Origin: Enterobacteria phage ATK47
Length of the DNA: 64,000 nt
Reading direction: 5' to 3' (one strand)
Sequence record: NC_055708.1
Below, piece by piece: positions 3,154 through 59,762 of the stretch. A model generated the notes under the pieces. It was not told where the DNA came from. It searched no databases and saw only the letters and a program-made list of their open reading frames with translations. Made by a program: the position numbers and the translations under genes. Within the stretch, counting starts at the first letter, position 1. Each line of letters opens with the position of its first letter.

Positions 3154-3567
3154 ATGACTCGTATCAATTTAACACTTGTTTCTGAACTGTCCGACCAACA
3201 TCTTATGGCTGAGTATCGTGAATTACCACGCGTATTTGGTGCAGTCCGTAAACATGTTCAAAACGGTAAACGTGTAAAGGATTTTAAAATCTCTCCAACA
3301 TTTATCTTAGGCACAGGTCACGTAACATTCTTTTACGACAAACTCGAATTTTTACGTTTACGTCAAATCGAGCTAATCGCTGAATGTTTGAAACGTGGTT
3401 TCAAAATCAAGGACACGACAGTCCAGGATATTTCCGACATCCCTGCCGAATTTCGTAATAATTATGTCCCGTCCGAAGCGTCCATTGCGATAAGTCAAGC
3501 ACGCTTAGATGAAAAAATTGCTCAACGTCCGACTTGGTACAAATACTATGGTAAATCAATTTACTAA
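3154..3567 (+). CDS. denV: Endonuclease V, pyrimidine-dimer DNA glycosylase
   Basis: [12 protein letters not shown]...[16 protein letters not shown] matches T4 endonuclease V as recalled. Confidence 0.95.
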
Positions 3568-7479: not shown

Positions 7480-7939
7480 AAACTATATCAAGGGCGATAT
7501 TGTCGCCCTGTTTTCTAAAGGTAATAATATTGCTCATGGGTGTAATTGTTTTCATACAATGGGCGCCGGTGTGGCAGGACAATTAGCAAAGGCTTATCCA
7601 AAAATTCTGGAAGCCGATAAACTTCAAACCGAATTCGGAGACGAGTCTAAACTCGGGACTTATTCGGTTTATGAAAAATATTTTAAGACCCATAAAGCTT
7701 ATTGCTTTAATCTTTATACGCAGTTTGAGCCGGGACCTAATTTTGAGTACTCTGCTTTAATGAATTGTATAATAGAATTAAATGAATTTGGAAAGAATAA
7801 GATAACAAAGCCTGTAATTTATATGCCAAGAATTGGTGCAGGTATTGGTGGTGGAAACTGGGATGTCATCGAAGAGATTTTAGATACGTATTCCACTAAA
7901 CTAGAAATTGTGATTGTTGATTGGGAACCGTTATTATGA
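7472..7939 (+). CDS. Macro-domain protein (ADP-ribose binding/hydrolase fold)
   Basis: Motifs HGCNCFHTMGAGVAGQLAKAYP and IGAGIGGGNW resemble macro-domain signature regions; start uncertain (GTG 7472 overlapping the upstream stop, or TTG 7442). Confidence 0.6.
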   Translation: MIKNYIKGDIVALFSKGNNIAHGCNCFHTMGAGVAGQLAKAYPKILEADKLQTEFGDESKLGTYSVYEKYFKTHKAYCFNLYTQFEPGPNFEYSALMNCIIELNEFGKNKITKPVIYMPRIGAGIGGGNWDVIEEILDTYSTKLEIVIVDWEPLL

Positions 7940-8148
7940 ATATACATTATCCACATCCATATGATCCAAAGAATAAGGCAGTAATTATTCGTCAATGGGA
8001 ACGCATTTGTCGTACTAAATGTCCAATTAATAGTCCACATGATGTAGATAAAGACTACATCGGAACATTCGTTGAATATACCTTTATTGATAAGAAAGGC
8101 CGTAAACAACATGTAGAAGAATATTGCTTAAAGGTGACATGGCTATGA
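7921..8148 (+). CDS. Hypothetical protein, 75 aa
   Basis: ORF. Confidence 0.35.
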   Translation: MGTVIMNIHYPHPYDPKNKAVIIRQWERICRTKCPINSPHDVDKDYIGTFVEYTFIDKKGRKQHVEEYCLKVTWL

Positions 8149-8351
8149 GTCAAACAAAAATTCTTACAGGTGCTAAATGCGAAAAATGCGAATGGCCTGT
8201 AGTTTTTGCTTTATGCAATGACGAAATGGCTTGTGATTTTGATTATTGGTGTTACTGTTCGAACAAAGGTTGTAGCAATCATAAAGGTGAAGGGTTTTAC
8301 TCAGGATTTTACCCTTACCCAGATTTCGTTAAAGAAGGTGAACCTAAATGA
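8145..8351 (+). CDS. Cys-rich small protein (possible zinc binding)
   Basis: CEKCEW...CNDEMACDFDYWCYCSNKGC. Confidence 0.4.
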   Translation: MSQTKILTGAKCEKCEWPVVFALCNDEMACDFDYWCYCSNKGCSNHKGEGFYSGFYPYPDFVKEGEPK

Positions 8352-8530
8352 AATTGACTAAAGAAGAGAAAACTAAACTGTTTGAACTTATCCATGACCT
8401 ATTGGATGAGCAAGCAGCCACCAATGCGTATGATGAATATGCTCCTTTGACGGACGAAGAATATCAAGCATTGTTGGAATCATTTGACAGGAAAGAACAA
8501 GAACTCATTGACTACGTGAATTCGTTATGA
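8348..8530 (+). CDS. Hypothetical acidic protein
   Basis: ORF, ATGA overlap. Confidence 0.4.
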   Translation: MKLTKEEKTKLFELIHDLLDEQAATNAYDEYAPLTDEEYQALLESFDRKEQELIDYVNSL

Positions 8531-11711: not shown

Positions 11712-12697
11712 TGAAAACAATTATGAAAGGCTACTTTGGTAGCCACCTTTATGGAACGTCTACTCCTGAATCTGACGTCGATTTTAAAGAAATTTATGTC
11801 CCTCATGCTCGTGATATTTTGACCGGTAACGTTAAAGAACATATGAGCAAGAACACGAATAACACATCTTCTAAGAACACAAAAGACGACGTAGACCATG
11901 AGTTGTATAGTCTAAAATATTTCTTTAAACTAGCTGCGGATGGTGAAACCGTCGCATTAGATATGCTTCATACTCCACCAAGTCTAGTAGTTAAATCTGA
12001 TTTGCCTGATGTATGGAAGTATATTCAAGATAACAGGTCTCGTTTCTATACCACTAACATGAAATCTTATTTAGGGTACGTCCGTAAGCAAGCTTCTAAA
12101 TACGGTGTCAAGGGTTCTCGACTGGCTGTTCTTCGTCAAGCCCTTAAACGTTCTAATGAATGGGGACAATACTTTGATAATGGTGCAGTAATTCGTTTAT
12201 CACATATGAAGAATGTTCTACCTGTAGGTGAATTTGCTTCATGGGTTGAAACCGAAAACGAGAAAACAGGTAAGCAAACATTCTATAGTCTGTTAGACCG
12301 TAAATTCCAAGACACGTTAACCAATAAAGAGTTCAATGCTATCCTGGTTAAACTGGAAGAGAACTATGGTGAACGTGCTCGTAAAGCAGAAGCTAACGAA
12401 GGTATTGACTGGAAAGCATTGAGTCATGCATGTCGTGGTGGACTTCAATTATTGGAAATTTACAAAACCGGCGACCTGGTTTACCCACTTCAGGATGCTC
12501 CATTTATTCTCGATGTTAAGCTTGGTAAACATACGTTTAAAACTGTACAAGAATTCCTAGAAGATATCGTTGACCAAGTTGAACATGCGTCAGAACAAGC
12601 TGCCAAGAATGGTATGCAACAAAAAGTAGATACGAGTTTCTGGGATGATTTCCTTGAGCAAGTCTATCTCGAAAATCATAATTCTTACTATAAATAA
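11708..12697 (+). CDS. Pol-beta-superfamily nucleotidyltransferase-like protein
   Basis: N-terminal G-S-x-x-Y-G-x(6)-S-D-V-D motif (GSHLYGTSTPESDVDF). Confidence 0.5.
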   Translation: MMKTIMKGYFGSHLYGTSTPESDVDFKEIYVPHARDILTGNVKEHMSKNTNNTSSKNTKDDVDHELYSLKYFFKLAADGETVALDMLHTPPSLVVKSDLPDVWKYIQDNRSRFYTTNMKSYLGYVRKQASKYGVKGSRLAVLRQALKRSNEWGQYFDNGAVIRLSHMKNVLPVGEFASWVETENEKTGKQTFYSLLDRKFQDTLTNKEFNAILVKLEENYGERARKAEANEGIDWKALSHACRGGLQLLEIYKTGDLVYPLQDAPFILDVKLGKHTFKTVQEFLEDIVDQVEHASEQAAKNGMQQKVDTSFWDDFLEQVYLENHNSYYK

Positions 12698-12728
12698 GTA
12701 GATAAATAACCCTTAACTTGAGGTAAAT

Positions 12729-12989
12729 ATGAAAAAATTAGCAATTGGTTTATTCGCAGTAATGATGGCATTCTCTGTTGGTGCTACCACAGGAGCTGGT
12801 GGTAACCAGTCTTCTGGGCCTTCCAACGGTTCGGTAAATGCATCACATTCTCAGGGTATTGAGAATATCAAATCGAGCTATATTAATAGCACTGCCGGAC
12901 AAGCAACTGAAGCATGGTCAAAGGGTCGAGTAGTTACACGCTCCGTATTCTGTGATATGCCTAATTATGTTGCTAAGTGCGATAAGTAA
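12729..12989 (+). CDS. Small secreted protein
   Basis: Signal peptide MKKLAIGLFAVMMAFSVGA. Confidence 0.45.
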   Translation: MKKLAIGLFAVMMAFSVGATTGAGGNQSSGPSNGSVNASHSQGIENIKSSYINSTAGQATEAWSKGRVVTRSVFCDMPNYVAKCDK

Positions 12990-12994
12990 ATGTG

Positions 12995-13014
12995 GGGACC
13001 TTCGGGTCCCTTTA
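12995..13014 (+). terminator. Rho-independent terminator (UUCG tetraloop)
   Basis: gggacc-ttcg-ggtccc + TTT. Confidence 0.7.
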
Positions 13015-13040
13015 GGGGGTCAAAATATTTTTAAAAAGTA

Positions 13041-13069
13041 GTGTACATGCTTTTAGGATATGATACTAT
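13041..13069 (+). promoter_or_regulatory. Early promoter (GTGTAC, TACTAT) with TATAGACCTATC box
   Basis: 17-bp spacing. Confidence 0.5.
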
Positions 13070-13086
13070 AGACCTATCGAAACGAA

Positions 13087-14088
13087 ATGAGTAAATTGGA
13101 GAATAAAATGTTCAACGTTCAAATCAAAAAAGGTATCTATCGTAATAACGAAATCTCTGGTTCTTATGTTGCCACAAAGACATGGTTCCCGGCAAAGCTT
13201 AATCCTGAATGTTCCCACTTAGGTGATGGTAAAATTTTCGTTATGATTGATGGTTCTGAACGTGGAGTATGGGTCTTCAAATCAGACATCGTAATGGAAG
13301 GAGTTGAGACGTCACCAGTTGCAGTTGTTGAAAGCACTGAAGATATGAAAACTCGTATCAACAAACGCTTTAAAGTAATGAACATGATGACGAATGGCAT
13401 TATTGATGGCAAAATTCGTTCACTCATTATTTCAGGTGCAGCTGGTATTGGTAAGACGTATTCTCTGGATAAAGCACTTAATAATGCTAATGATAATGGT
13501 TTCATCAAATACAAAAGCATTAATGGTAAAATCTCCGGTATTGGCCTTTACGAACAACTTTGGCTCAACCGTGATGAAGACAGCGTTCTCTTAATCGATG
13601 ACGTTGACGTATTCTCAGATATGGACATCCTGAACCTTCTTAAAGCAGCATTAGATACCGGAGATAAACGCAAAGTTTGTTGGAGCACTGCGTCATCTTA
13701 TCTCGAGGATAAGGGTATTGATAAAGAATTTGAGTTTGAAGGTACTATCGTTTTCATTACAAACGTTGATATCGATAAAGAGTTAGAACGGGGTTCGAAA
13801 CTTGCTCCACACCTTCAAGCTTTAGTATCTCGTTCAGTGTATCTCGACCTTGGAGTACACTCTAATGAAGAGATTATGGTTCGAGTTGAAGATGTAATAT
13901 TATCTACTGATATGATGCAGAAACGTGGCTTGACTGATGCTGAAACGTATAAAGCATTGTCCTGGATGAAGGCTAATGTATCTCGTCTTCGCAATGTATC
14001 ATTACGTACGGCTCTTTATGTAGCAGATTTTATTTCAACCGATAAAGATGGTTGGGAGGAAATCTCCGAAGTAACTTTACTGAAATAA
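13087..14088 (+). CDS. P-loop NTPase (AAA-like ATPase)
   Basis: Walker A GAAGIGKT and Walker B LLIDDVD. Confidence 0.55.
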   Translation: MSKLENKMFNVQIKKGIYRNNEISGSYVATKTWFPAKLNPECSHLGDGKIFVMIDGSERGVWVFKSDIVMEGVETSPVAVVESTEDMKTRINKRFKVMNMMTNGIIDGKIRSLIISGAAGIGKTYSLDKALNNANDNGFIKYKSINGKISGIGLYEQLWLNRDEDSVLLIDDVDVFSDMDILNLLKAALDTGDKRKVCWSTASSYLEDKGIDKEFEFEGTIVFITNVDIDKELERGSKLAPHLQALVSRSVYLDLGVHSNEEIMVRVEDVILSTDMMQKRGLTDAETYKALSWMKANVSRLRNVSLRTALYVADFISTDKDGWEEISEVTLLK

Positions 14089-14225
14089 GCTTATAGGAAG
14101 TTCTGAGGTAACAAAAGCCATAAAGATGAATAATCATATGGCTTACCTCAAAGAAGGACACCAGGAACCTACTGAGGGCATAGAAATATTTAAAATAATG
14201 ATGTACAAATCAAAGAGGATATGTT

Positions 14226-14513
14226 ATGGATTTTATGCAAAAAATTAAAGCCGCAGTCGAACTCTATGCTCATCGTATGGTTAGTTCTACGATGCAATAT
14301 AGCGAGGAGGTTCGCCAGGACTCTTCCTTGAAAGGAAAAACTAAAGCCTTAATTACCTTAGATCGTTTGCAAAAGAATGCCATAGAGATGCTCCAGTACG
14401 ACAAGGGTGTATATAAGAAAGAACAGGAAGAGAAACTTAAATCTGAAAAATTACAAAAAATCCCGAAGTCGGTTTGGTTCAGTGGAAAAAATACCGAAAA
14501 AAGTTTCTTTTAG
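14226..14513 (+). CDS. Hypothetical protein
   Basis: ORF. Confidence 0.4.
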   Translation: MDFMQKIKAAVELYAHRMVSSTMQYSEEVRQDSSLKGKTKALITLDRLQKNAIEMLQYDKGVYKKEQEEKLKSEKLQKIPKSVWFSGKNTEKSFF

Positions 14514-14515
14514 TT

Positions 14516-14549
14516 GTTTACAAGGTCTATGGTTATGTTATTATAGACC
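14516..14549 (+). promoter_or_regulatory. Early promoter-stem-loop (GTTTAC, TATTAT; inverted repeat aggtctat/atagacct)
   Basis: Read directly. Confidence 0.55.
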
Positions 14550-14571
14550 TATCAACTACTGGAGGTAAAAC

Positions 14572-15099
14572 ATGAACGCTAAAGATATTTTCAACCTGGT
14601 AAATTATAACGACGGTAAATTTAAATCTGAAGCACAAAGCAAGTTCTTTAATGACGTTGCTTATGGTAACGAGATTACCGTAGATGGAGGTCAGATTTTC
14701 AAATCTCGCTGGAATTGGATTGTTATCATCGATTCAGTTGGAATTGTGGAAGTCTACAAAAACACTAACAAAAACCGTACATTATTCTGGTCTCGTGAAA
14801 CTAACGAGCAGTACAAAAAGGATAAAGCATCTCGTTTATCCAAAGTAACCCAGGAAGATATCGAGTTTATTAAGAAAGATATCGAGATGTACGAAAATTT
14901 AATCGCTGAAGACCAGGCAGTACTCGATAAGTTTGATGAAATTAAAGCTTCTCGTGAAATCCCTGACTTCATGAAAGAAACAGTAAACGAACGATACGCT
15001 CTCACTTCAGAACGTATTGCAAACTATACAAAACAGAAAGCAGAACGTATTAGTACTCTTCGGAAATTTGAAGAACGTTTAAAGACGGTTCACGCATAA
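14572..15099 (+). CDS. Hypothetical protein, 175 aa
   Basis: ORF with SD. Confidence 0.45.
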   Translation: MNAKDIFNLVNYNDGKFKSEAQSKFFNDVAYGNEITVDGGQIFKSRWNWIVIIDSVGIVEVYKNTNKNRTLFWSRETNEQYKKDKASRLSKVTQEDIEFIKKDIEMYENLIAEDQAVLDKFDEIKASREIPDFMKETVNERYALTSERIANYTKQKAERISTLRKFEERLKTVHA

Positions 15100-15161
15100 A
15101 CGCTTTACCCAAGGACGGGTTATAATGGTTTTGAGTTCCAATTCAATCTGAGGAAATAGTT

Positions 15162-16157
15162 ATGAGCATTACATCTGATGCGATAAAACATGAAATTAAC
15201 GGTTTATGTGCTTCACAGATTAAAGTGTGGTTTAAAGACCATAATGATCGCAGAGCGCTTAATTATGAACGAATTGCTATCCAAGTTCATCAATTACTGG
15301 TTAGTAAATTTGATTTTCATATGCCGTCTGAAATCTATACTAATCTACCGCGAGCGCTTATTAAAGCGTGTAAAGGCTACGGAAAATCAATGGCTGACGG
15401 AATCTTCAGCGCGCTGAATAAACTTAACGTTCTGTCGATGATTAACTCTAACAATATCCTGCGTAATCTAGGACGTACTGATTTGTTCGGTCGTGAACAG
15501 TGTAAAATGCCTTTGAAACGGATTGTTGCTCATCTTAACGAGAACCAAACACGTTTTATGGCCGTAACAGCACGTTTACAAATGGGCCTAGATCGTCAGA
15601 TGAACTTTAAAACTCATCCACGTTATTCAGGTTCAACAGACTTTTATAAATGTGAGCTTCAAAAGGTTGGTGGTAAAACTGTCTTAGTAGTTCGTGTAAC
15701 GTTTGAAGGACGACGTCAAGGATATTTTGACATAATCGGCTCTGGTCTTAAACATTGTGGATTTATCGACGAAGTTGATATCAAGCGAGACGGCATTGGA
15801 TACCGTATTGGGTATGTTTGTACTCTTAAAGAAGAGATTTCAGGACCAGCTCCAGGACTAAAAGACGTTAGATATAAAGACGAGCTCGTTGAAGAAATAA
15901 AAGAAGTTGAATATGATATCAACCAAGAAGATGCTCTTAAAGACCTTATTGATGAACTGAACCAAGATGTTATTCCTGTTCAGAAATTTGAATCAAAACA
16001 TGCTGAGCAAATCAAATACTTTGAAGCTTTGATTAACGAACTTAATGTAACTATTCAACAGACTGACGATGAAATCTCACGATTAGCAGGCTTAAACGGT
16101 AAAAATAAAACAGAACGAGCTAATCTTATTCAAGTAGTAAAACTTCTTAAGGAATGA
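15162..16157 (+). CDS. Hypothetical protein with C-terminal coiled coil
   Basis: ORF; heptad-like C-terminal ~80 aa. Confidence 0.5.
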   Translation: MSITSDAIKHEINGLCASQIKVWFKDHNDRRALNYERIAIQVHQLLVSKFDFHMPSEIYTNLPRALIKACKGYGKSMADGIFSALNKLNVLSMINSNNILRNLGRTDLFGREQCKMPLKRIVAHLNENQTRFMAVTARLQMGLDRQMNFKTHPRYSGSTDFYKCELQKVGGKTVLVVRVTFEGRRQGYFDIIGSGLKHCGFIDEVDIKRDGIGYRIGYVCTLKEEISGPAPGLKDVRYKDELVEEIKEVEYDINQEDALKDLIDELNQDVIPVQKFESKHAEQIKYFEALINELNVTIQQTDDEISRLAGLNGKNKTERANLIQVVKLLKE

Positions 16158-16186
16158 TGTACAACCAAGGATGGTTGGAGTATAAT
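16157..16186 (+). promoter_or_regulatory. Conserved early promoter copy (aTGTACaaccaaggatggttggagTATAAT)
   Basis: Near-identical 30-bp unit also at 17177, 59176, 59733. Confidence 0.6.
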
Positions 16187-16212
16187 AAATTTTTCAACAT
16201 GAGGAATATAAA

Positions 16213-17172
16213 ATGGCTTTTATTACACGTAGAGAACTTATCAAAGAATTTACCTCGAACGCATATACTCCAGGACCTAATCCTATCCGTATGCCTGTAA
16301 AGACTCCTGAAGAGATTGAGGAAATCTGTTCATATTATGGGATTACTTCTCGTATGTTTACCCAATTTGAATGCGTTACTAACACACCCGTTAAAGAGTT
16401 CATTAAAAATGGTGAGTTCAGCCGTTTATTGGCCAAACAGAAACTTCGTAATTTTTGTATTGGCGGTGAAGGTCAATATTTCGCTAAGCAGTTCCGGAAT
16501 AACCTTAACAATCTGATGGCCATTGCTTCTCGTATTCGTCCTCAAGCAATTAACATGAAACATTTGAAATATACTTACGATAAGTTAGAAATCATGGTTA
16601 TCAGTGAGAACGAGTTCACTCTTACGTATAAACCTAAGAATGATAACGTTGCTCGTGTATTCCACCAAGCGTTGGAAGTTTTAGGTGATAATATCCACCA
16701 GATTAAAGCAATTTATTCTCGTGAGCTTAATATTATCGACCCTATCAAGAATAAGGGCCATATCGCTATCCAGGCTCGTGTATCTATTGGTAAAAAGGTT
16801 CCTGCACCATGGTGGCACAAAGACTCTGAATATTATCAAAATCTTAAAAAGGAAAATGCAACATTTGAAGCGTCAATTACTGCAACCCCAATTGGTAATG
16901 CTGAAGTTCTAGGTTCATATTCTACTTCGGGTAAATCAATGTTTAAAGGTTTGCCAAATGTGTGCAAACTGTCTGCAGTAAAACTAAATGTTTCTAATGA
17001 CCTTCTTCCGGTCGAAGATTACCATTACAATCAAATCAAGGCCACTATGGACCAACTGTCTGTTGAACTTGACAAAGCACAAGCTAAGCTTCGTGATGCT
17101 CAAAGTGTTGTAACGAATCTCCAGTTGCAGTACTCTAAACTTTTTAACGCAATGAATGCATTAAAATCATAA
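16213..17172 (+). CDS. Hypothetical protein with C-terminal coiled coil
   Basis: ORF. Confidence 0.5.
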   Translation: MAFITRRELIKEFTSNAYTPGPNPIRMPVKTPEEIEEICSYYGITSRMFTQFECVTNTPVKEFIKNGEFSRLLAKQKLRNFCIGGEGQYFAKQFRNNLNNLMAIASRIRPQAINMKHLKYTYDKLEIMVISENEFTLTYKPKNDNVARVFHQALEVLGDNIHQIKAIYSRELNIIDPIKNKGHIAIQARVSIGKKVPAPWWHKDSEYYQNLKKENATFEASITATPIGNAEVLGSYSTSGKSMFKGLPNVCKLSAVKLNVSNDLLPVEDYHYNQIKATMDQLSVELDKAQAKLRDAQSVVTNLQLQYSKLFNAMNALKS

Positions 17173-17176
17173 AACG

Positions 17177-17206
17177 GTTTACAACCAAGGACGGTTGGAG
17201 TATAAT
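17177..17206 (+). promoter_or_regulatory. Conserved early promoter copy (GTTTACaaccaaggacggttggagTATAAT)
   Basis: Read directly. Confidence 0.6.
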
Positions 17207-17234
17207 GAATCTATCTTAACGAGAGGAAAATATT

Positions 17235-18185
17235 ATGACACGTTCACATTACATTGAATACTTTGCCGGGCTTATCGCTAACGTTCATGCTCAGCGCGCT
17301 ACTGGTGCACTAGGATTTGATGTTCCACACCGAGATGTAGTAAGTGGTATTCTTCGCGATTTTGGTACATACACAGGCCAAGAAAATCATATCTGTAAAG
17401 ATACTCAAAATGCATATTCTCATTCATTAGGGACGCTGCTTCAATGGTTCAAACGTTCTCGTTTATTATCTTCTACTGTAGCTCGCGATAACATTAAAAA
17501 CTTTATGAAGCCGAGCTTTATTAAATCTGTGACATCTAAAACCGATTTGGTTGAATTCACTATTGTTAATGATGTTAAAAAGACTCATTTGGCTGATTGG
17601 TTATCTACCATTCCTGAAACTAAATTTGCTGATAAATTTGCTTGTGAATTCAATAACCAAGTGAATATGCTTTTTAAACATTCTCGTAAATTATTCACGG
17701 GCGGTGATGGTCGTACAAATAAAGTTCATGTTAAAGATTGGGTTACTGCAGTATTCAAACCGACCGGTAATGGTAACGCATCATTATCAATTGATATCCA
17801 GGTTCCTTATTACTACTCACGTAATCTCGGTACCATGAAAGCCGAAGAAATTAATAAGCACAACAAAACCGTTCGTTCATTGTCTTATAAACTTATTACA
17901 TTGTTAGAGACTATGGATGTTGTTGAAACGTTCGACGAATCCGAAGATAACGGTTCAATGTTATACAGTTCTCGTACCAGAATTAAGCTGAAGAACCCTA
18001 ACGAGTATAAACTTAAGACTATTAAAGAACCTAAAGTAGAAAAAGTTGACAACTTGAGCGAAGAACGTGAATACCTCAAATCTCGTCTGAAAGAAGTCGA
18101 AGCCCAGATTAAAGAACAAACTAAATCGTTAAAAGCTCTTAATGCGAAAGCGGATGGTTTACGAAATGCCATTGAGGTTTTATAA
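17235..18185 (+). CDS. Hypothetical protein with C-terminal coiled coil
   Basis: ORF. Confidence 0.5.
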   Translation: MTRSHYIEYFAGLIANVHAQRATGALGFDVPHRDVVSGILRDFGTYTGQENHICKDTQNAYSHSLGTLLQWFKRSRLLSSTVARDNIKNFMKPSFIKSVTSKTDLVEFTIVNDVKKTHLADWLSTIPETKFADKFACEFNNQVNMLFKHSRKLFTGGDGRTNKVHVKDWVTAVFKPTGNGNASLSIDIQVPYYYSRNLGTMKAEEINKHNKTVRSLSYKLITLLETMDVVETFDESEDNGSMLYSSRTRIKLKNPNEYKLKTIKEPKVEKVDNLSEEREYLKSRLKEVEAQIKEQTKSLKALNAKADGLRNAIEVL

Positions 18186-18490
18186 TGAAACTACGTCTTT
18201 TAGAGGATATTGATATGAACACTAATCACAGCTTGGTTAAGTTTATTGACGATAGTTCAAAGATTGAATTTGTTCAGCGAGATAAAATCCACGGTGAAGA
18301 AGAGTTCGTTCCTCCAGCATGGAACGAAATCATGAAAATGGTTGAACGACGTGAAAATGCTGCCAAATCGGCAGCAAAACACCCATGTCCGGAATGTGGA
18401 ACTATCCAAGTCCAACTGGTTAACTGGACCACTGATAACTTGAAATTGAAATGCCGTAAATGCTTCCACAATTTTGAGAGAACATTATAA
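18185..18490 (+). CDS. Zinc-ribbon protein
   Basis: CPECG...CRKC pairs. Confidence 0.45.
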   Translation: MKLRLLEDIDMNTNHSLVKFIDDSSKIEFVQRDKIHGEEEFVPPAWNEIMKMVERRENAAKSAAKHPCPECGTIQVQLVNWTTDNLKLKCRKCFHNFERTL

Positions 18491-18903
18491 TGAGATATAG
18501 CCTTCGTTGTTTTATCGCAGCTTTAGTTTTTGCTATTATTCCATTCATTTGGAACAGCCAGAATACTTACATGGAAACTAAAGTAATTCCTGTGGAGGTA
18601 GTGGAATTAATCTCAGGACAATCTACAGGAAAATATTCTAAATTGGAATTTATTGCAGTCTATAAAGATGAGCAAGGACGAGTTTTTGACAGGCGTGTAT
18701 CGCCATCGTTTTATACGCTTCTGAATAAAGGTGATACGATAGCTATAGAAATTCGTGAGATGGATATCAAACAAACTACTAAAGATAACTTGATTTGGTT
18801 CTTTGGTACAGTGTTGTTGGTTTCTATCTGTATCACAGGTTTTATTACATGTATTGTATTTGGCGTTGCATATTTAATCGATGAAAGGAAAAATAATGTT
18901 TAA
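18490..18903 (+). CDS. Hypothetical membrane protein
   Basis: Hydrophobic N- and C-terminal helices. Confidence 0.4.
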   Translation: MRYSLRCFIAALVFAIIPFIWNSQNTYMETKVIPVEVVELISGQSTGKYSKLEFIAVYKDEQGRVFDRRVSPSFYTLLNKGDTIAIEIREMDIKQTTKDNLIWFFGTVLLVSICITGFITCIVFGVAYLIDERKNNV

Positions 18904-19159
18904 AGTGTACGGGTACGACTCTACTATTCATAAATGCATTTATTGCGATAATGCGAAACGATTGCTGACTGTTAAGAAACAGCCATTCGAATTCATTAAT
19001 GTTATGCCGGAAAAAGGTGTTTTTGATGATGAGAAAATTGCTGAGCTTCTGGCTAAGCTTGGACGTGAAACACATGTTGGATTGACGATGCCTCAGGTGT
19101 TTGCTCCTGACGGAAGTCACATTGGTGGATTTGACCAACTACGAGAATATTTTAAATGA
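18896..19159 (+). CDS. nrdC: Glutaredoxin/thioredoxin NrdC
   Basis: MFKVYGYDS..HKC.YCDNAKRLL matches T4 NrdC as recalled. Confidence 0.95.
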   Translation: MFKVYGYDSTIHKCIYCDNAKRLLTVKKQPFEFINVMPEKGVFDDEKIAELLAKLGRETHVGLTMPQVFAPDGSHIGGFDQLREYFK

Positions 19160-19452
19160 GTATTGATTTAACTTTCCCTGGCCCTTATGACCAGGGTGAA
19201 TTAGAAGCTTTATTATATCAAGAAATGTGCTCTCGTGCCAAGAACGATATTCAGTATGCTATCGATAATCCATGGGGCGAATTTCGAGTAATGATGGGTA
19301 ATCGAATCATCGGTGTCCAATGGCGATTCGTTGGCCTTGAGCCTGAGGACTATGAAGAAAACGAGCACGGTGACTGGATTCCCGTTGGTGAATATCACTG
19401 GGAATACGGTGGTCCTGATTTTGAAGTCTCTTGTTCATGGGTAGAACAATAA
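19156..19452 (+). CDS. Hypothetical protein
   Basis: ORF. Confidence 0.4.
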   Translation: MSIDLTFPGPYDQGELEALLYQEMCSRAKNDIQYAIDNPWGEFRVMMGNRIIGVQWRFVGLEPEDYEENEHGDWIPVGEYHWEYGGPDFEVSCSWVEQ

Positions 19453-19955: not shown

Positions 19956-20126
19956 ATGCAAGTTAAATTATTGTACCGTTTATTAAAAAACGGCAAACAT
20001 GATTGGTATTTGCTTATTAAAACCGATCCGAATTTTTTCTCTGGACAACCATTTACAGTTCGTCCTACTAAACGTCAGCTTCGCAAAGCTAAACGTTCTC
20101 ATCGTAACTTTTATAGAGAATATTGA
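19956..20126 (+). CDS. Small basic protein, paralog A
   Basis: C-terminal RPTKRQLRKAKRSHRNFYREY; paralogous to 20551-20730. Confidence 0.35.
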   Translation: MQVKLLYRLLKNGKHDWYLLIKTDPNFFSGQPFTVRPTKRQLRKAKRSHRNFYREY

Positions 20127-20127
20127 T

Positions 20128-20541
20128 ATGAATATTTCTGAAACTCGCGGTAAATGGTTCAAGATTGTTAAAGAAGATGAAGAACTACAAGTCAAGTTTC
20201 CTGAATTAAAGAAAGGAACAATCATCAAGGTAATTGGTACTACTACCGAAGATGGTTATGGCGACCATGGCATTATCGAAGTGATGTTGAACACAGGTGA
20301 GAAACTTTGCATCTATGACCGTGATACTTCTCTTTGGTGCTTCTGGGAATCCCATTCAATAGATGAACTCGAAGAAATTGACCAAGTAGTTTGTGATGGT
20401 GGACTTGGCGAATTCGAAGGTGAACGTATTTCTTATGCTTTAGCTAAATTAGCTGGTCAAGAAAATAATGACGGTTATGAAGGTAATCTGATGCAAGCCG
20501 CAGCGGAATACATTGAATACTTAGAAAGACGTTTAAGTTAA
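20128..20541 (+). CDS. Hypothetical acidic protein, 137 aa
   Basis: ORF. Confidence 0.45.
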   Translation: MNISETRGKWFKIVKEDEELQVKFPELKKGTIIKVIGTTTEDGYGDHGIIEVMLNTGEKLCIYDRDTSLWCFWESHSIDELEEIDQVVCDGGLGEFEGERISYALAKLAGQENNDGYEGNLMQAAAEYIEYLERRLS

Positions 20542-20550
20542 AGGTTTATT

Positions 20551-20730
20551 ATGAAAACTGAACTATTTTATGGTGAAAGAAAAAATGGGCAAAAATCCTG
20601 GAAATTTATTATGATTGGGGCCCCAAACAATCCAAATATGAGGACTTCAATTATTTCAGAAACTCGTCCTACTAAAAGAATGATTCGTCAGTATAAGCGT
20701 TTCCATCGAGACTTTTATAACGTTTACTAA
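20551..20730 (+). CDS. Small basic protein, paralog B
   Basis: C-terminal RPTKRMIRQYKRFHRDFYNVY; 59 aa, not in ORF track. Confidence 0.35.
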   Translation: MKTELFYGERKNGQKSWKFIMIGAPNNPNMRTSIISETRPTKRMIRQYKRFHRDFYNVY

Positions 20731-21243: not shown

Positions 21244-23057
21244 AAATTGAAAAAGAAATTGAAGGATTAATTTATAAAACTAATAAAGATCTTTTGAACG
21301 AGAATGCTAATAAAGATTCTCGTGTTTTTCCAACTCAACGGGACCTTATGGCTGGTATTGTGTCTAAGCACATTGCCAAAAATATGGTCCCGTCTTTTAT
21401 TATGAATGCGCATGAAAGCGGAATCATTCATATGCATGATATTGATTATTCTCCTGCTCTTCCATTTACTAATTGCTGTTTAGTCGATTTAAAGGGGATG
21501 CTTGAGAATGGATTTAAATTAGGCAATGCTCAAATTGAAACGCCTAAATCGATTGGTGTTGCTACTGCAATTATGGCACAAATTACTGCACAAGTTGCTT
21601 CCCATCAATACGGCGGAACGACTTTTGCTAATGTAGATAAAGTACTTTCTCCTTATGTTAAACGCACCTATGCAAAACATATTGAGGATGCAGAAAAATG
21701 GCAAATCGCTGATGCGTTGAATTATGCTCAATCCAAAACAGAAAAAGATGTCTATGACGCATTCCAAGCTTATGAATATGAAGTAAATACTCTCTTTAGT
21801 TCAAACGGACAAACGCCTTTTGTAACAATTACATTTGGTACTGGAACTGATTGGACCGAACGAATGATTCAGAAGGCAATTCTTAAAAACCGCATTAAAG
21901 GTCTTGGTCGTGATGGAATAACTCCTATTTTCCCTAAACTTGTTATGTTTGTCGAAGAGGGTGTTAATCTTTATAAAGACGATCCGAACTATGATATTAA
22001 GCAACTCGCTCTAGAGTGTGCAAGCAAAAGAATGTATCCTGACATTATTTCTGTTAAGAATAATAAAGCTATTACCGGTTCTTCAGTTCCAGTTTCTCCA
22101 ATGGGTTGCCGTAGTTTCTTGAGCGTATGGAAAGATTCGACCGGTAATGAAATTCTTGATGGACGTAATAATCTCGGTGTTGTAACACTGAATCTTCCTC
22201 GTATCGCATTAGATTCTTATATTGGAACACAGTTCAATGAACAGAAATTTGTTGAATTATTCAACGAACGAATGGATCTGTGCTTTGAAGCTTTGATGTG
22301 TAGAATTAGTTCCTTAAAAGGAGTTAAAGCGACTGTTGCTCCTATTCTTTACCAAGAAGGTGCATTCGGGGTTCGTCTTAAACCTGACGACGATATAATT
22401 GAGTTATTTAAAAACGGTAGAAGTTCAGTGTCTTTAGGATACATTGGTATTCATGAATTGAATATTCTTGTTGGCCGTGATATTGGACAAGAAATTTTAA
22501 CTAAGATGAATGCTCATCTTAAACAGTGGACTGAAAGAACTGGATTTGCTTTTAGCTTGTATTCTACACCTGCTGAAAACCTTTGTTATCGTTTCTGTAA
22601 ACTCGACACAGAAAAATACGGAAGTGTAAAGGATGTCACTGATAAAGGCTGGTACACTAATAGTTTCCATGTTTCAGTAGAAGAAAATATTACTCCGTTT
22701 GAAAAGATTTCTCGTGAAGCGCCATATCATTTCATTGCGACAGGTGGTCACATTTCTTATGTTGAACTTCCAGATATGAAAAACAATTTAAAGGGACTTG
22801 AGGCTGTCTGGGATTATGCTGCACAACATTTAGATTATTTTGGTGTTAATATGCCAGTAGATAAGTGTTTTACATGCGGAAGCACCCATGAAATGACTCC
22901 TACTGAAAACGGATTTGTTTGTTCAGTTTGCGGAGAAACTGATCCTAAAAAGATGAACACTATAAGAAGGACCTGCGGTTATTTGGGAAATCCGAACGAG
23001 CGCGGATTTAATCTAGGCAAAAATAAAGAAATCATGCATAGGGTTAAACACCAATGA
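21240..23057 (+). CDS. nrdD: Anaerobic ribonucleoside-triphosphate reductase NrdD
   Basis: 605 aa; C-terminal glycyl radical motif RRTCGYLG; uninterrupted (no intron). Confidence 0.95.
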   Translation: MKIEKEIEGLIYKTNKDLLNENANKDSRVFPTQRDLMAGIVSKHIAKNMVPSFIMNAHESGIIHMHDIDYSPALPFTNCCLVDLKGMLENGFKLGNAQIETPKSIGVATAIMAQITAQVASHQYGGTTFANVDKVLSPYVKRTYAKHIEDAEKWQIADALNYAQSKTEKDVYDAFQAYEYEVNTLFSSNGQTPFVTITFGTGTDWTERMIQKAILKNRIKGLGRDGITPIFPKLVMFVEEGVNLYKDDPNYDIKQLALECASKRMYPDIISVKNNKAITGSSVPVSPMGCRSFLSVWKDSTGNEILDGRNNLGVVTLNLPRIALDSYIGTQFNEQKFVELFNERMDLCFEALMCRISSLKGVKATVAPILYQEGAFGVRLKPDDDIIELFKNGRSSVSLGYIGIHELNILVGRDIGQEILTKMNAHLKQWTERTGFAFSLYSTPAENLCYRFCKLDTEKYGSVKDVTDKGWYTNSFHVSVEENITPFEKISREAPYHFIATGGHISYVELPDMKNNLKGLEAVWDYAAQHLDYFGVNMPVDKCFTCGSTHEMTPTENGFVCSVCGETDPKKMNTIRRTCGYLGNPNERGFNLGKNKEIMHRVKHQ

Positions 23058-25695: not shown

Positions 25696-25740
25696 ATGTA
25701 CAACGATAGGAAGACATGTTATTATCTTCCTATCGTCTTA
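25696..25740 (+). promoter_or_regulatory. Early promoter-stem-loop (aTGTAC, TATTAT; inverted repeat gataggaaga/tcttcctatc)
   Basis: 10-bp perfect inverted repeat. Confidence 0.55.
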
Positions 25741-25756
25741 AAATGAGGAAAATATC

Positions 25757-25996
25757 ATGGCCCAAGAATTAGATTTTATCAAATTCAAAAAACACCTCGA
25801 CGTTAAAATTGGGGATTCAATTGTTAGGATTGAGTATGACATTTTAACAGATGCTATTACTGTTAGTTGTGATGGAAATAGTTTCAGCTTCGATACAACC
25901 GAAAACAAATACCCAATCTATAAAGGTATCTTTGATATGGGTGTTGATATTACTCCACGTGATACAAATTACTTACTTTTCATGCTTAAAAAATAA
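25757..25996 (+). CDS. Hypothetical protein
   Basis: ORF. Confidence 0.4.
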   Translation: MAQELDFIKFKKHLDVKIGDSIVRIEYDILTDAITVSCDGNSFSFDTTENKYPIYKGIFDMGVDITPRDTNYLLFMLKK

Positions 25997-26062
25997 TATA
26001 CAAACTCTTGAGAGATGAGTATAATTCTCTCATCGGATAATAAAATAACCGAGGAAAATAAT

Positions 26063-32359: not shown

Positions 32360-32399
32360 TAAATTTGTTATACTTTGAATTGTCTTGAAAGGAAATAAA

Positions 32400-33086
32400 A
32401 TGAAACTGTCTAAAGATACTATCGCTATTCTGAAAAACTTTGCCTCTATTAACTCCGGTATTCTGCTGAGTCAAGGTAAATTTATTATGACCCGTGCAGT
32501 TAATGGCACCACTTATGCGGAAGCAAATATCTCTGATGAAATTGATTTTGACGTAGCACTTTATGATTTGAATAGCTTCTTAAGCATTTTGAGTCTAGTG
32601 TCTGATGATGCTGAAATTTCAATGCACACTGATGGCAATATTAAAATTGCAGATACACGTTCCACAGTTTATTGGCCTGCTGCCGACAAGAGCACCATTG
32701 TTTTTCCTAATAAGCCAATTCAATTCCCAGTGGCTTCTGTGATTACTGAAATTAAAGCTGAAGACCTTCAACAATTGCTTCGAGTTTCACGTGGTCTCCA
32801 GATTGATACAATTGCTATTACAAATAAAGATGGTAAAATTGTTATCAATGGTTACAATAAAGTTGAAGATTCTGGCTTGACTCGTCCTAAGTATTCTTTG
32901 ACTCTTACCGATTATGATGGTTCTAACAACTTTAACTTCGTAATCAATATGGCTAATATGAAAATCCAGCCAGGTAACTATAAAGTAATGTTGTGGGGAG
33001 CTGGTGATAAAGTTGCAGCCAAGTTTGAAAGCTCTCAAGTAAGTTATGTTATTGCAATGGAAGCCGATTCTACTCACGACTTCTAA
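32400..33086 (+). CDS. 45: Sliding clamp gp45
   Basis: 228 aa; near-identical to T4 gp45 as recalled. Confidence 0.97.
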   Translation: MKLSKDTIAILKNFASINSGILLSQGKFIMTRAVNGTTYAEANISDEIDFDVALYDLNSFLSILSLVSDDAEISMHTDGNIKIADTRSTVYWPAADKSTIVFPNKPIQFPVASVITEIKAEDLQQLLRVSRGLQIDTIAITNKDGKIVINGYNKVEDSGLTRPKYSLTLTDYDGSNNFNFVINMANMKIQPGNYKVMLWGAGDKVAAKFESSQVSYVIAMEADSTHDF

Positions 33087-35060: not shown

Positions 35061-35065
35061 AGCAA

Positions 35066-35094
35066 TGGGACTTCGGTCCCATTTGGAGTATAAT
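35066..35094 (+). terminator. Terminator hairpin (tgggac-ttcg-gtccca + TTT) immediately followed by a TATAAT -10 element
   Basis: Read directly; -10 at 35089-35094. Confidence 0.6.
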
Positions 35095-40396: not shown

Positions 40397-40782
40397 TGCA
40401 CCGTGTAGAAAACATGCTTAATCTTTGTTTTGATGTCGATGATTGTATAACAGAGTGGAATAACAATCGTGATTATGTGAACTTCAAACCAGACGTCGAA
40501 ATGGTGACCGCCATTAATGCCCTGTATGATGCAGGGCATACCATAACGCTTTACACTGCTCGTGGTATGAAGTCGGTAGGTCCTGGTCGTATAGCAATTG
40601 ACATTCTCCCAAGTCTGATTCAGAACTTGGAAAACATTGGTTTGAAGTACCATAATTTGCTAACACATAAACCAGTATATGATTGGATTATCGACGACAA
40701 AGCTATGCGTCCTGACGAATTCAAAGCTCTTATGAATAAAGGCGAATTCGAAACATTTAAATCGTATAAACCGAATCTATAA
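40396..40782 (+). CDS. HAD-like phosphatase candidate
   Basis: N-terminal FDVDDCIT (DxD motif); TAATG overlap with upstream gene. Confidence 0.45.
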   Translation: MHRVENMLNLCFDVDDCITEWNNNRDYVNFKPDVEMVTAINALYDAGHTITLYTARGMKSVGPGRIAIDILPSLIQNLENIGLKYHNLLTHKPVYDWIIDDKAMRPDEFKALMNKGEFETFKSYKPNL

Positions 40783-47593: not shown

Positions 47594-47968
47594 ATGAATA
47601 TGTCTCAAGCAATTTTTACTGCAATCACCGAAAACACAACTGTTGAAGTAGTTTCTCCGCTGGCAACCTACGTTATTCTTGCTCCTAAATCTATTGTATC
47701 TCGTATGGAAAACATGGGCAAACGTATCGTACAAATCGTTGGAGCCGGAAATCAAAAACTTGATTATCTGCGAACCATCAAAGCTTATGAACATTTCCAA
47801 CTCGAAAAAGGTTCTCCTATCCAGGTAGAACTCGTAAATGGTGATATCGTTCGAGCAATGTTCCATCATTTCTATGCATTGAATGACCCATCTAAAGCGG
47901 TTCGTTTAATTGCATACGACGCAAACCAAAACGAAATCAACGCAGATATATCTAAATTACGTTTTTAA
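47594..47968 (+). CDS. Hypothetical protein
   Basis: ORF with SD. Confidence 0.45.
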   Translation: MNMSQAIFTAITENTTVEVVSPLATYVILAPKSIVSRMENMGKRIVQIVGAGNQKLDYLRTIKAYEHFQLEKGSPIQVELVNGDIVRAMFHHFYALNDPSKAVRLIAYDANQNEINADISKLRF

Positions 47969-48017
47969 GTTTACTTCTCCAGTAGTTGTGTTATTATAGA
48001 CCTATCAACTACTGGAG
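47969..48017 (+). promoter_or_regulatory. Early promoter-stem-loop (GTTTAC, TATTAT; inverted repeat ctccagtagttg/caactactggag)
   Basis: 12-bp perfect inverted repeat; 3' arm includes SD. Confidence 0.6.
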
Positions 48018-48023
48018 AACAAA

Positions 48024-48341
48024 ATGAAAACCATCGATTGTAAAGCAGAATTTAAGATTTTTTATCACGGTTCAAGTAGTTCAGCTAACATCGAAAACAT
48101 GCTTTGTCCTCCTGAAGAAACAGGAGTTCTGTCTGAAACTGGACGTAAGAAAAACTTGAATCGTGTATTCTTTACTGAAGATATCGGTTTAGCAAAGATT
48201 TATGCAGGACGAGCAGCACGCTCTTATGGAGGTGAACCACGTCTCTATCGAGTAATTTCTCCGGTAGACGTAGTTCAAATGAATAATACTAAAGGTGCTA
48301 CAGTTTATCACGCTGAATGGGCATTTTGCGAGGAAATATGA
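48024..48341 (+). CDS. Hypothetical protein
   Basis: ORF. Confidence 0.4.
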   Translation: MKTIDCKAEFKIFYHGSSSSANIENMLCPPEETGVLSETGRKKNLNRVFFTEDIGLAKIYAGRAARSYGGEPRLYRVISPVDVVQMNNTKGATVYHAEWAFCEEI

Positions 48342-48526
48342 GCAAATTAACTAAAGTTACTTTTATCGGTTGGTTTAAAAGCGGCGAGATGTTCACTAAA
48401 GATATCATGCTATCAGGTGATCGCGAAGAAATCGAGTGGGTTACGGTACAACTTGCTGAAGTGAACAATGCATTAGTTAAAGCATTTATTAATGACGAGA
48501 AAGTTTTCGAAGCAGATTTTCGATAA
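48338..48526 (+). CDS. Hypothetical small protein
   Basis: ATGA overlap. Confidence 0.35.
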   Translation: MSKLTKVTFIGWFKSGEMFTKDIMLSGDREEIEWVTVQLAEVNNALVKAFINDEKVFEADFR

Positions 48527-48539
48527 TTTTAAAATAACT

Positions 48540-48569
48540 GTTTACAAGCACCACATACTGTGTTACTAT
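48540..48569 (+). promoter_or_regulatory. Early promoter (GTTTAC, TACTAT)
   Basis: 18-bp spacing. Confidence 0.5.
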
Positions 48570-48597
48570 CTTTCTATCAACTACAGAGGAAATTGAA

Positions 48598-48966
48598 ATG
48601 AAAAAATTAATCGCTTTAGCAATGGTATTTGGATTAACCGGATGTGGTGCCCATGGCTTTATCCCTAATAACGTCGGCCAATTGATTTACAATCCGAATG
48701 TTAAACAGTACGACCAACCTAAAGTTGAAGTGGAAGACCCGGTTACTGTAGGTAATCGAATGATTCAAGCTGATGCCCATGCTCAACGTTATCGTGATTC
48801 TGATACTGTAGCATTGTCAAAAGAACAACGCGTTAAAGAACATTGCTTACAGGCTACTGAAATCGCATTCATTCGCTATGTTGAAACAACTGGTAAAGAG
48901 CCTTCCCAGAAACAAATCGCGAATAACTACGTCCAGTGTATTGAACGTTTAAACAAATTTAATTAA
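48598..48966 (+). CDS. Lipoprotein
   Basis: Lipobox LTGC after signal peptide. Confidence 0.5.
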   Translation: MKKLIALAMVFGLTGCGAHGFIPNNVGQLIYNPNVKQYDQPKVEVEDPVTVGNRMIQADAHAQRYRDSDTVALSKEQRVKEHCLQATEIAFIRYVETTGKEPSQKQIANNYVQCIERLNKFN

Positions 48967-48969
48967 TTG

Positions 48970-48999
48970 GTTTACACCAAAGTTAAAATAAGATACTAT
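48970..48999 (+). promoter_or_regulatory. Early promoter (GTTTAC, TACTAT)
   Basis: 18-bp spacing. Confidence 0.5.
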
Positions 49000-49027
49000 A
49001 AACATAACAAATCAAGAGGAAATTAAC

Positions 49028-49276
49028 ATGGAATTATTCGTAGCTAGTTCAGTAGCAGTTTTAATCGCAGGTATTGGTTCAATCATCATTTACATGTTGC
49101 CTTGGGTAATCGCACTTATTCGTGGCACAAAAAGCACAACAGCAATCTTCTTTGTATCTTTGCTCTTTAACTGGACGATGGTTGGTTGGATTGGAACTTT
49201 AATTTGGTCTATCGTTGCCGAAAAGAAATCTGCTCAGCAGCCTCAACAAGTAATTATTATTCGCGAAAAAGAATAA
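49028..49276 (+). CDS. Small two-helix membrane protein
   Basis: Two transmembrane segments. Confidence 0.45.
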   Translation: MELFVASSVAVLIAGIGSIIIYMLPWVIALIRGTKSTTAIFFVSLLFNWTMVGWIGTLIWSIVAEKKSAQQPQQVIIIREKE

Positions 49277-49280
49277 ACTT

Positions 49281-49318
49281 GTTTACATTATAGATGGACT
49301 ATAGTATAGTAGTCCTAT
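49281..49318 (+). promoter_or_regulatory. Early promoter-stem-loop (GTTTAC, TATAGT doubled; TATAGTAGTCCTATC box)
   Basis: Read directly. Confidence 0.5.
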
Positions 49319-49339
49319 CAAATCAACTAAGGAGTTAAA

Positions 49340-50285: not shown

Positions 50286-50286
50286 A

Positions 50287-50484: not shown

Positions 50485-50503
50485 ATATACTCAGGAGGTA
50501 CCT

Positions 50504-50971: not shown

Positions 50972-51010
50972 TATGATGGCCTTATTAATTTAAGGCCTCT
51001 GGAGAATACT

Positions 51011-59175: not shown

Positions 59176-59205
59176 GTTTACAACCAAGGATGGTTGGAGT
59201 ATAAT
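59176..59205 (+). promoter_or_regulatory. Conserved early promoter copy (GTTTACaaccaaggatggttggagTATAAT)
   Basis: Identical to the 16157 copy. Confidence 0.6.
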
Positions 59206-59235: not shown

Positions 59236-59730
59236 ATGAATATCAATACCACGGCTACTTACATCCTGAAAGATGAAAAACAAATCAACTGGTACGGTGC
59301 TTCAGTGCGAGCTTATGAAAAGTTTTGTGAAATTTTAGGTGCCACTCAAGGTAATAGTTTCACTATTGTTAACTTCATCAAACAAGTTGAAGGCCCTTGG
59401 TTATTCTTAGAAATTAAAAATTCATATGGTACAATTTCTACTACCGCCCTTCCAAGCACCGACTTTGAACTGTTGATTGAAGAAGTAGAACCTGTTAAAG
59501 ACATCTGTATTGATATGGATATCGCTTGTATGTATGGTACTCTGATTAAGCCTATTGAGCCTACTGATTTGTTGTGTAAATATGTTTCAATTCGACGACC
59601 ATTCGCTGGTCCAGTAAATGGATGGGTAACTGATCAGTGGATTGAAGACGGTGTTGAACTTCTGAACGTTGTTCATGCAGGTGATTTTAGTGTAGTTCCA
59701 CGTAGTGCTGTGGTTAATATCCTTAATTAA
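59236..59730 (+). CDS. Paralog family member 1
   Basis: Shares C-terminal W(V/I)EDG..L.N.V..G.F.VV with the next two genes. Confidence 0.45.
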   Translation: MNINTTATYILKDEKQINWYGASVRAYEKFCEILGATQGNSFTIVNFIKQVEGPWLFLEIKNSYGTISTTALPSTDFELLIEEVEPVKDICIDMDIACMYGTLIKPIEPTDLLCKYVSIRRPFAGPVNGWVTDQWIEDGVELLNVVHAGDFSVVPRSAVVNILN

Positions 59731-59732: not shown

Positions 59733-59762
59733 TTGTACATCCAAGGACGGATGGAGTATAAT
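59733..59762 (+). promoter_or_regulatory. Conserved early promoter copy (TTGTACatccaaggacggatggagTATAAT)
   Basis: Variant of the 30-bp unit. Confidence 0.55.

Follow-up and report, generated by a model that had tools for sequence, protein, structure and literature searches.

Why would one short promoter sequence recur, almost unchanged, in front of different accessory genes of a phage? This question is raised by a 64,000-nt stretch of DNA from Enterobacteria phage ATK47 (NC_055708.1), here called the window, in which the initial annotation noticed near-identical copies of a 30-bp unit with GTTTAC at one end and TATAAT at the other, and likened them to the promoter-early-stem-loop (PeSL) cassettes of T4-type genomes. 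As defined in phages RB49 and phi1, a PeSL comprises a stop codon, an AT-rich stretch, sigma-70-type -35 and -10 boxes, a stem-loop located between the boxes or one that overlaps the -10 box, a Shine-Dalgarno (SD) sequence and an ATG (Arbiol et al. 2010, PMC2839356), and the likeness holds, as the units have the layout published for these phages. The window matches phage ATK48 (KT184310.1; Straboviridae, Mosigvirus, RB69-like) with 100% identity, and a window position equals the ATK48 record position minus 34524. We conclude that the units, in this RB69-like phage, are probably early promoter cassettes of the PeSL type, which would double as direct repeats.

The whole ATK48 genome (169,729 bp) was scanned in addition to the window. 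Copies were sought with a 30-mer search permitting up to three mismatches, with 100 shuffles as control, with a separate 22-mer core search, and with a structure-based scan for AAGGAY between complementary arms; the intergenic regions compared across genera were picked by gene order, without consulting the motif.

Copies and architecture of the unit

The repeat is real: the 30-mer search returned 16157-16186 (two mismatches, with ATGTAC for GTTTAC), 17177-17206 (exact) and 59176-59205 (exact), and no match in the shuffles, and the 22-mer core added 59741-59762 with one mismatch. The latter belongs to a unit at 59733-59762, which has four differences over its full length, two of which compensate for each other by exchanging an A-T for a T-A pair in the stem of a hairpin located in the spacer. 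The structure-based scan placed the loops of this hairpin at window positions 15111, 16167, 17187, 59186 and 59743; every one is on the + strand and has TATAAT after it. Five units, starting at 15103, 16157, 17177, 59176 and 59733, are therefore present in the window, and two more were found elsewhere in the ATK48 genome: a sixth copy at record position 141158 (+ strand; stem ATCC/GGAT), between a 30.6-like gene and a 65-aa open reading frame (ORF), and a seventh, whose loop has 7 nt, at record position 131342 (+ strand), between denA and rnlA and upstream of rnlA. Six AAGGAY hairpins with stems of 4 bp or more are present, compared with about 0.9 expected by chance per genome. All seven copies are intergenic and on the early-transcribed + strand, and they sit in the variable regions nrdC.x, motB, 30.x and denA|rnlA, with none in the core late-gene blocks; the motif is thus not equally frequent in conserved core regions.

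The full units share one order of elements: an upstream stop codon located 0-12 nt before the -35 box or overlapping it, T(T/G)TACA, a 17-nt spacer, TATAAT, and an SD sequence with ATG placed 23-30 nt past the -10 box. The stem of the spacer hairpin measures 4-6 bp in all copies and the loop is AAGGAY, the main form being CAACC-AAGGAY-GGTTG. The first full unit (16157..16186, + strand) lies between genes D and E and is predicted to drive E. The TGA stop codon of D (16155-16157) overlaps its -35 region (TGTACA, 16158-16163), which is followed by the stem CAACC (16162-16166), the loop AAGGAT (16167-16172), the second arm GGTTG (16173-16177), GAG and the -10 box TATAAT (16181-16186), with a start predicted near 16193. 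The E|F unit (17177..17206, + strand), predicted to drive F, has TTTACA at 17178-17183, CAACC, the loop AAGGAC at 17187-17192, GGTTG, GAG and TATAAT at 17201-17206. Between dexA and gene G, the unit predicted to drive G (59176..59205, + strand) has TTTACA at 59177-59182, the loop AAGGAT at 59186-59191 and TATAAT at 59200-59205, and in the G|H unit, predicted to drive H (59733..59762, + strand), TGTACA (59734-59739) is followed by the compensated stem variant CATCC and GGATG around the loop AAGGAC (59743-59748) and by TATAAT at 59757-59762. The shortened variant between C, the nrdC.8 homologue, and D (15103..15126, + strand) is also real, though its -35 box is mis-spaced. It consists of CTTTAC, the stem ACCC (15107-15110), the loop AAGGAC (15111-15116), the stem GGGT (15117-15120) and TATAAT (15121-15126), and since only 12 nt lie between CTTTAC and TATAAT, it may be a -10-only or degraded unit; it is missing from the predicted RB69 early-promoter list.

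As promoters, the full units (TTTACA or TGTACA, 17 nt, TATAAT) match 10-11 of the 12 consensus positions. T4-type early promoters are characterized by GTTTAC at -36 to -31, an A-rich UP-like region and a TGn extended -10 element (PMC2988021, PMC1524935). GTTTAC is present in the units at 17177, 59176 and record position 141158, and is replaced by ATGTAC or TTGTAC at 16157 and 59733. The units lack TGn and have GAG before the -10 box instead; the T4 copies read TGG-TATAAT. Genome-wide in ATK48, GAGTATAAT has 14 occurrences on the early (+) strand, middle-type promoters included, versus one on the - strand, and GAG at -15 to -13 seems to be a promoter feature of ATK48, standing where T4 has its TGn or GT-rich element. 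The RB69 early promoters Pe:52042, Pe:51019, Pe:8947 and Pe:8387, predicted with a hidden Markov model (HMM) by Nolan et al. 2006 (PMC1524935, Additional file 3), correspond, with identical sequences and at identical gene junctions, to the D|E, E|F, dexA|G and G|H units, respectively. From the consensus, the position and this earlier HMM prediction, we infer that the units are active promoters used early in infection. T4 nrdC.4 RNA has been picked as an NAD-capped transcript (bioRxiv 10.1101/2024.04.04.588121), which is an indirect hint at promoter activity.

Loss of cassettes between units

Two genes lie as cassettes between two units: E (16213..17172, + strand), which encodes a 319-aa protein of the Pfam family DUF7235 and is a weak homologue of T4 nrdC.5 (~26% identity), and G (59236..59730, + strand), which encodes a 164-aa MotB-family, motB.1-like protein. 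The initial annotation had suggested that the units could act as recombination hot spots, an idea supported by relatives that lack E or G and carry a single chimeric unit at the junction. For E, a 71-bp query around 17177 revealed one class of Mosigvirus genomes in which the homology begins within the -35 box, and in p000v, WFL6982 and AV114 gene F directly follows D, gene E is missing and a single intergenic unit is present. The left part of this unit, with ATGTAC, is identical to the ATK48 D|E copy, and the right part, with the leader and the beginning of F, is identical to the E|F copy, with the crossover inside the common core ACAACCAAGGAYGGTTGGAGTATAAT (26 bp). The D-F junction was found in 21 phage records, and on two E|F allele backgrounds (GAATCT... 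and CTTTCT...); E is present in 131 Mosigvirus-level records, which are 87-100% identical, with five additional weak matches. The comparison suggests that the E-less state is a deletion, because a weak match to E (~22% identity) occupies the same position in Dhakavirus.

Gene G is missing in JM17 and S143_2, where the single unit combines the left half of the dexA|G copy (CAACC/GGTTG) with the right half of the G|H copy, the crossover lying inside TGGAGTATAAT. The losses of E and G are independent of each other, since JM10 and F27 lack only E, S143_2 lacks only G and JM17 lacks both. Judging by these relatives, E and G are dispensable cassettes, and their deletions were probably made by recombination rather than slippage. 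An unbiased comparison of ATK48 with JM17 over the whole window, in which synteny breakpoints were set against motif positions, identified 16 sites with an indel or a replacement. Repeated promoter units bound a cassette indel at four of them; two of the four involve the AAGGAY family, with overlaps of 53 bp at the E site and 64 bp at the G site, and the other two are at window 25704-25995, between two promoters of a second family, and near window 13048-13112, at a third unit.

Conservation of the spacer hairpin

The motif search over the full genome and relatives also located the hairpin in T4, Dhakavirus and Gaprivervirus. Downstream of nrdC.5, Mosigvirus has CAACC-AAGGAY-GGTTG, Dhakavirus (VR5, JS98) CATCC-AAGGAY-GGATG, Gaprivervirus VR20 CTTCC-AAGGAT-GGAGG with one G.U pair, and T4 CCAC-AAGGAT-GTGG; downstream of nrdC.8, the stem is ACCC/GGGT in Mosigvirus, and T4 and Dhakavirus VR5 have TATACC-AAGGAT-GGTATA. 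The stems thus change in compensating fashion across four genera, and the AAGGAY loop is constant at every site found, including those picked by gene order, with diverged flanks. Searches of IMG/VR for more diverse copies returned four loci in a protein-based scan and ten stretches with an exact-core pattern; a loose pattern gave mostly chance matches and only three new loci, all from Gaprivervirus.

T4 evidently has the same repeated-unit phenomenon: it contains four AAGGAY hairpin sites, all on the early strand (loops at 2444, 50959, 53345 and 49902, - strand), and the site between gene 60 and rIIA.1 differs from the nrdC.5|nrdC.4 copy at one of 30 positions. T4 nrdC.4 is flanked by a hairpin unit on each side and is absent from Mosigvirus, where a single unit joins nrdC.5 to nrdC.3. 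Similarly, T4 nrdC.7 directly follows the hairpin unit downstream of nrdC.8, a place taken by nrdC.6 in Mosigvirus and Dhakavirus. These nrdC.4 and nrdC.7 differences may represent older rearrangements of the same pattern. The RB69 G|H unit (8339-8387) and the T4 nrdC.4|nrdC.3 unit (49902) have GGAGTATAAAT in place of GGAGTATAAT; the one-base change in GGAGTATAAAT creates TATAAAT, matching the initial seven bases of the late-promoter motif of T4, TATAAATA.

The main text of Nolan 2006 (PMC1524935) does not mention a hairpin, palindrome or spacer, and neither a repeated sub-family nor a connection with gene loss was seen in that work. A literature search with the literal sequences of the units gave no match. 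Relative to the papers searched, what is new is the AAGGAY-loop hairpin in the spacers of a subset of T-even early promoters, including those of T4, Dhakavirus and Gaprivervirus.

How the units may work

Our model for the units is as follows. A full unit would be a strong host-type (sigma-70) promoter placed right after the stop codon of the preceding gene, and would provide the next accessory gene with its own early transcript and a short leader (26-30 nt from the -10 box to ATG) with a ribosome-binding site. The hairpin would most likely serve as a cassette-boundary signal on read-through RNA, for example as an attenuator, a 3'-end or a processing structure. The copies, which share about 26-50 bp of identity, would act as direct repeats as well, so that the phage recombination system could use two of them to delete, or in principle insert, the intervening gene, and after a deletion one hybrid promoter would be left that still drives the next gene.

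Several points weigh against this interpretation. A literature search found no mapped transcript 5' ends for RB69-like phages, which is why promoter use and timing are predicted. The hairpin is ordinary in energy (-6.4 to -9.6 kcal/mol; z -0.02 to -1.9 relative to shuffles), is not called by a terminator scan and lacks a T-run, so that, on these computed criteria, the terminator half of the PeSL concept is unsupported. The pairing statistics for 11 distinct hairpins (94.5% of cells paired, double changes in four of five pairs, none of 500 shuffles as high, and a collapse in slid registers) are partly circular, as several members were found by requiring a stem, and the unbiased evidence comes from the gene-order comparisons. 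The G deletion needs just 11 bp of identity in the present-day copies (TGGAGTATAAT), which amounts to microhomology and not to classical homologous recombination. Furthermore, 12 of the 16 indel or replacement sites in the window are not promoter-bounded, and the replacement at the 30.x copy in p000v and AV118 begins ~200 bp downstream of the motif, so that this copy is unsupported as a clean breakpoint.

Like the PeSLs of RB49 and phi1, the units have the same layout, are intergenic repeats in hyperplastic regions and flank single dispensable genes, and close relatives without the flanked gene retain one hybrid unit. Unlike them, they belong to another genus and have another sequence, their stem is short and of mixed sequence versus polyG/polyC, it is weak and not terminator-like, and the genera share one constant loop. 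For the RB49/phi1 PeSLs, measurements of promoter, terminator and mini-circle activities exist, whereas the ATK48 units are known from sequence alone; RB69 is not mentioned in Arbiol 2010 (PMC2839356). PeSLs were subsequently extended to T4/PST and KVP40/nt-1, with the consensus TTTACW-N17-TAYWAT and indels between close pairs (Comeau 2014, PMC4122927). The units described here resemble the T4/PST PeSLs in coming from T-even relatives, in promoter consensus and in indel association, but the stem-loops reported there lie just upstream of the promoter (AGNA-loop-TCNT type in PST/T4), and the spacer AAGGAY hairpin is not described (PMC4122927). The morons of lambdoid phages (promoter-gene-terminator) are likewise single accessory genes with their own promoter, but have no conserved bounding repeat as an exchange point (PMC2839356, discussion). 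Thus, the RB69 promoters had been predicted and the PeSL concept published, and the family presented here is a further PeSL example, from Mosigvirus.

What the spacer hairpin contributes can be read in several ways. The hairpin lies upstream of the predicted start of its own unit, and therefore exists as RNA only in read-through transcripts. We raise, as a tentative and rather improbable proposal, that the AAGGAY hairpin is a distinct functional element of an early-promoter subset in at least four T-even genera, including the T4 60|rIIA.1 and nrdC.x sites, and is read on the sense read-through RNA by RegB/S1, the ribosome or a phage factor not yet known. If true, one 30-bp unit would start the transcript of the next cassette and mark or cut that of the previous one, and would represent a promoter with an RNA signal in its spacer.

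A functionless hairpin is a rather improbable alternative. Here, ordinary early promoters would have spread by duplication and gene conversion, with the palindrome kept by mutational bias and the likeness of the copies due to concerted evolution. Template switching in quasi-palindromes is classically described for T4 rII. Consistent with such an origin, the energy of the hairpin is not distinguishable from that of shuffled sequence, the sixth base of the loop switches between C and T among orthologous copies, and in the AV114 and RB69 E|F allele the downstream part (CTTTCTATCTTAAC) is that of the dexA|G copy, which is compatible with inter-copy exchange. However, the AAGGAY loop is unchanged at gene-order sites in four genera despite the diverged surroundings, at least six stem sequences all still pair, one via G.U, and templated correction accounts for the symmetry of the arms but not for the constant loop.

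A specific version of the RNA proposal, which we hold to be similarly doubtful, is that the hairpin is a sequence-specific signal in read-through RNA, offering an unpaired GGA or SD-like AAGGA loop, followed by GGAG-UAUAAU, to RegB/S1 or the 30S subunit, and that cleavage or ribosome capture uncouples neighbouring cassettes post-transcriptionally. The consensus of strong RegB sites is GG*AGRAYARAA, and RegB alone recognises unpaired GGA and cuts GGAU too (PMC3014915). ATK48 has regB, GGAGUAUAAU fits about 8 of the 11 RegB consensus positions, and the constant loop together with the G.U-tolerant stem points to the sense RNA strand. On the other hand, GGAG occurs in four of six copies, with its first G within the stem, and is missing from the copies at 15103 and 141158 and from the T4-type copies; GAG before TATAAT is generic in this genome, as is evident from its strand distribution given above; and four of six loops are GGAC, which is no documented RegB target. 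GGAG as a dedicated RegB signal is weakened accordingly, GAG-TATAAT being a general promoter feature of this genome.

Two further readings fare worse. It is very unlikely that the inverted repeat is the operator of a dimeric DNA-binding regulator that shuts off this early-promoter subset: it does lie between -35 and -10, where a bound protein blocks polymerase, and the shut-off mechanism of T4 early promoters is still unknown (PMC2988021), but the arms covary freely over at least six sequences where a base-reading protein would fix them, the constant part is the non-palindromic AAGGAY, and only 4-7 of roughly 50-60 early promoters have the hairpin. There is equally little to commend an intrinsic terminator of the upstream gene like the RB49 PeSL stem-loop, which we rejected on computed criteria, for the hairpin does follow the upstream stop codon by 0-12 nt and one RB49 stem-loop is a strong terminator in a reporter, but the weak stem (4-6 bp, -6 to -9.6 kcal/mol) is followed by GAGUAUAAU and no U-tract and is not called by the terminator scan.

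Downstream genes and other repeated units

The genes behind the units had been described as unrelated and lineage-specific. Unrelated they are in the case of D, E and F, which show no BLASTP similarity to one another and whose Pfam assignments differ or are absent, and tandem paralogy behind common promoters is rejected. Lineage-specific they are not: D is related to T4 nrdC.6 (~29% identity; no Pfam match), E to nrdC.5 as stated above, F (17235-18185) is a homologue of T4 nrdC.3 (56% identity; no Pfam match), and G and H (59793-60248) belong to the MotB family. The GenBank record of ATK48 names the whole nrdC.10 to nrdC.2 series (window 12000-19200, record 47632-53683) 'thioredoxin'. Since D and F are without a Pfam match and E falls into DUF7235, this label looks like a carry-over of the nrdC name. 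The RB69 nrdC.5 gene (51014-51972), the counterpart of E, aligns with the ATK48 protein in three tblastn pieces and is annotated with 903 bp versus 957 bp, a shortness that may reflect a frameshift or sequencing error in the reference genome. The MotB-like G-H-I module (window 59226-60682) is 87% identical to that of Tequatrovirus KRT47 and 82% to that of RB51, the homology with KRT47 extending from ~20 nt past the -10 box of the 59176 unit to the stop codon of gene I; KRT47 has ordinary T4-type promoters where the AAGGAY unit would be, and G-H-I may be a module exchanged between genera.

Other promoter-associated hairpins and repeats are present in the window. The position 35081, listed by the initial annotation as a partial copy, does not belong to the family, as it shares only TTGGAGTATAAT and has a different, unrelated hairpin with a TTCG loop. 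No Rfam family reaches its gathering score anywhere in the window, the AAGGAY hairpin included. In this regA|43 intergenic region (window 35065-35094), the 7-bp hairpin ATGGGAC-TTCG-GTCCCAT is followed by TTTGGAG and TATAAT, an arrangement that resembles a terminator-type hairpin joined to the DNA polymerase gene's promoter. A second promoter family, T(T/A/G)TACAAACTCTTGAGAG(C/A)(A/T)GAGTATAAT(G/T)CTCTCAT, has four near-identical copies genome-wide, at window 25997-26031 (record 60521) and at record 30218, 105196 and 133920. A hairpin of 6-7 bp (GAGAGC...GCTCTC) presents its -10 box in the loop, which corresponds to the PeSL sub-type in which the stem-loop overlaps the -10 box. A promoter of this family forms the right border of a 292-bp cassette (window 25704-25995) that is present in ATK48 and not in JM17, the left border being a promoter TGTACA...TATTAT with a GGAAGA/TCTTCC hairpin; JM17 has kept one promoter here, with the crossover within the -35 box (TACAA). 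A third repeated unit (window 13040-13112), with TACTAT or TATTAT as -10 box and AGACCTATC in the leader, occurs too in RB69 Pe:6863 and in Dhakavirus VR5, and near window 13048-13112 the JM17 genome contains one additional ORF of 270 bp, with a 65-bp repeat of the unit at its flanks.

The 12 sites of change relative to JM17 that are not promoter-bounded comprise two homing-endonuclease insertions, one more large insertion, one paralogue fusion, two gene-start deletions (overlaps of 5-13 bp), three other deletions and three replacements. The insertions in JM17, of 866, 916 and 720 bp, lie at window 21245-21298, 32363-32425 and 40401-40420, and two of them are annotated as homing endonucleases. 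At window 20116-20663, 548 bp are absent from JM17, and the overlap of 56 bp falls where two small paralogous genes encode their C-termini (…TCGTCCTACTAAA…CATCG…ACTTTTATA); this looks like a gene fusion through recombination between paralogues and not between promoters. Gene-sized deletions are found in JM17 at window 3163-3459 and 7930-8339; one of the two junctions coincides with the ATG of the gene that was lost (overlap of 13 bp, ATTATGAC...) and the other precedes the start codon by ~5 nt (overlap of 5 bp, GAACC), and in both cases the entire gene is gone and the next start site intact.

Significance

The findings would extend the PeSL model, in which portable promoter units are exchange points for accessory genes, to the RB69 group, with junction-level evidence at two loci and about 150 sequenced relatives. 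As T4 also has the hairpin, the best-studied phage system provides an element that can be mutated to ask why certain early-promoter spacers carry a structure. For phage engineering, the units would mark natural sites at which genes may be swapped with the expression of their neighbours undisturbed.

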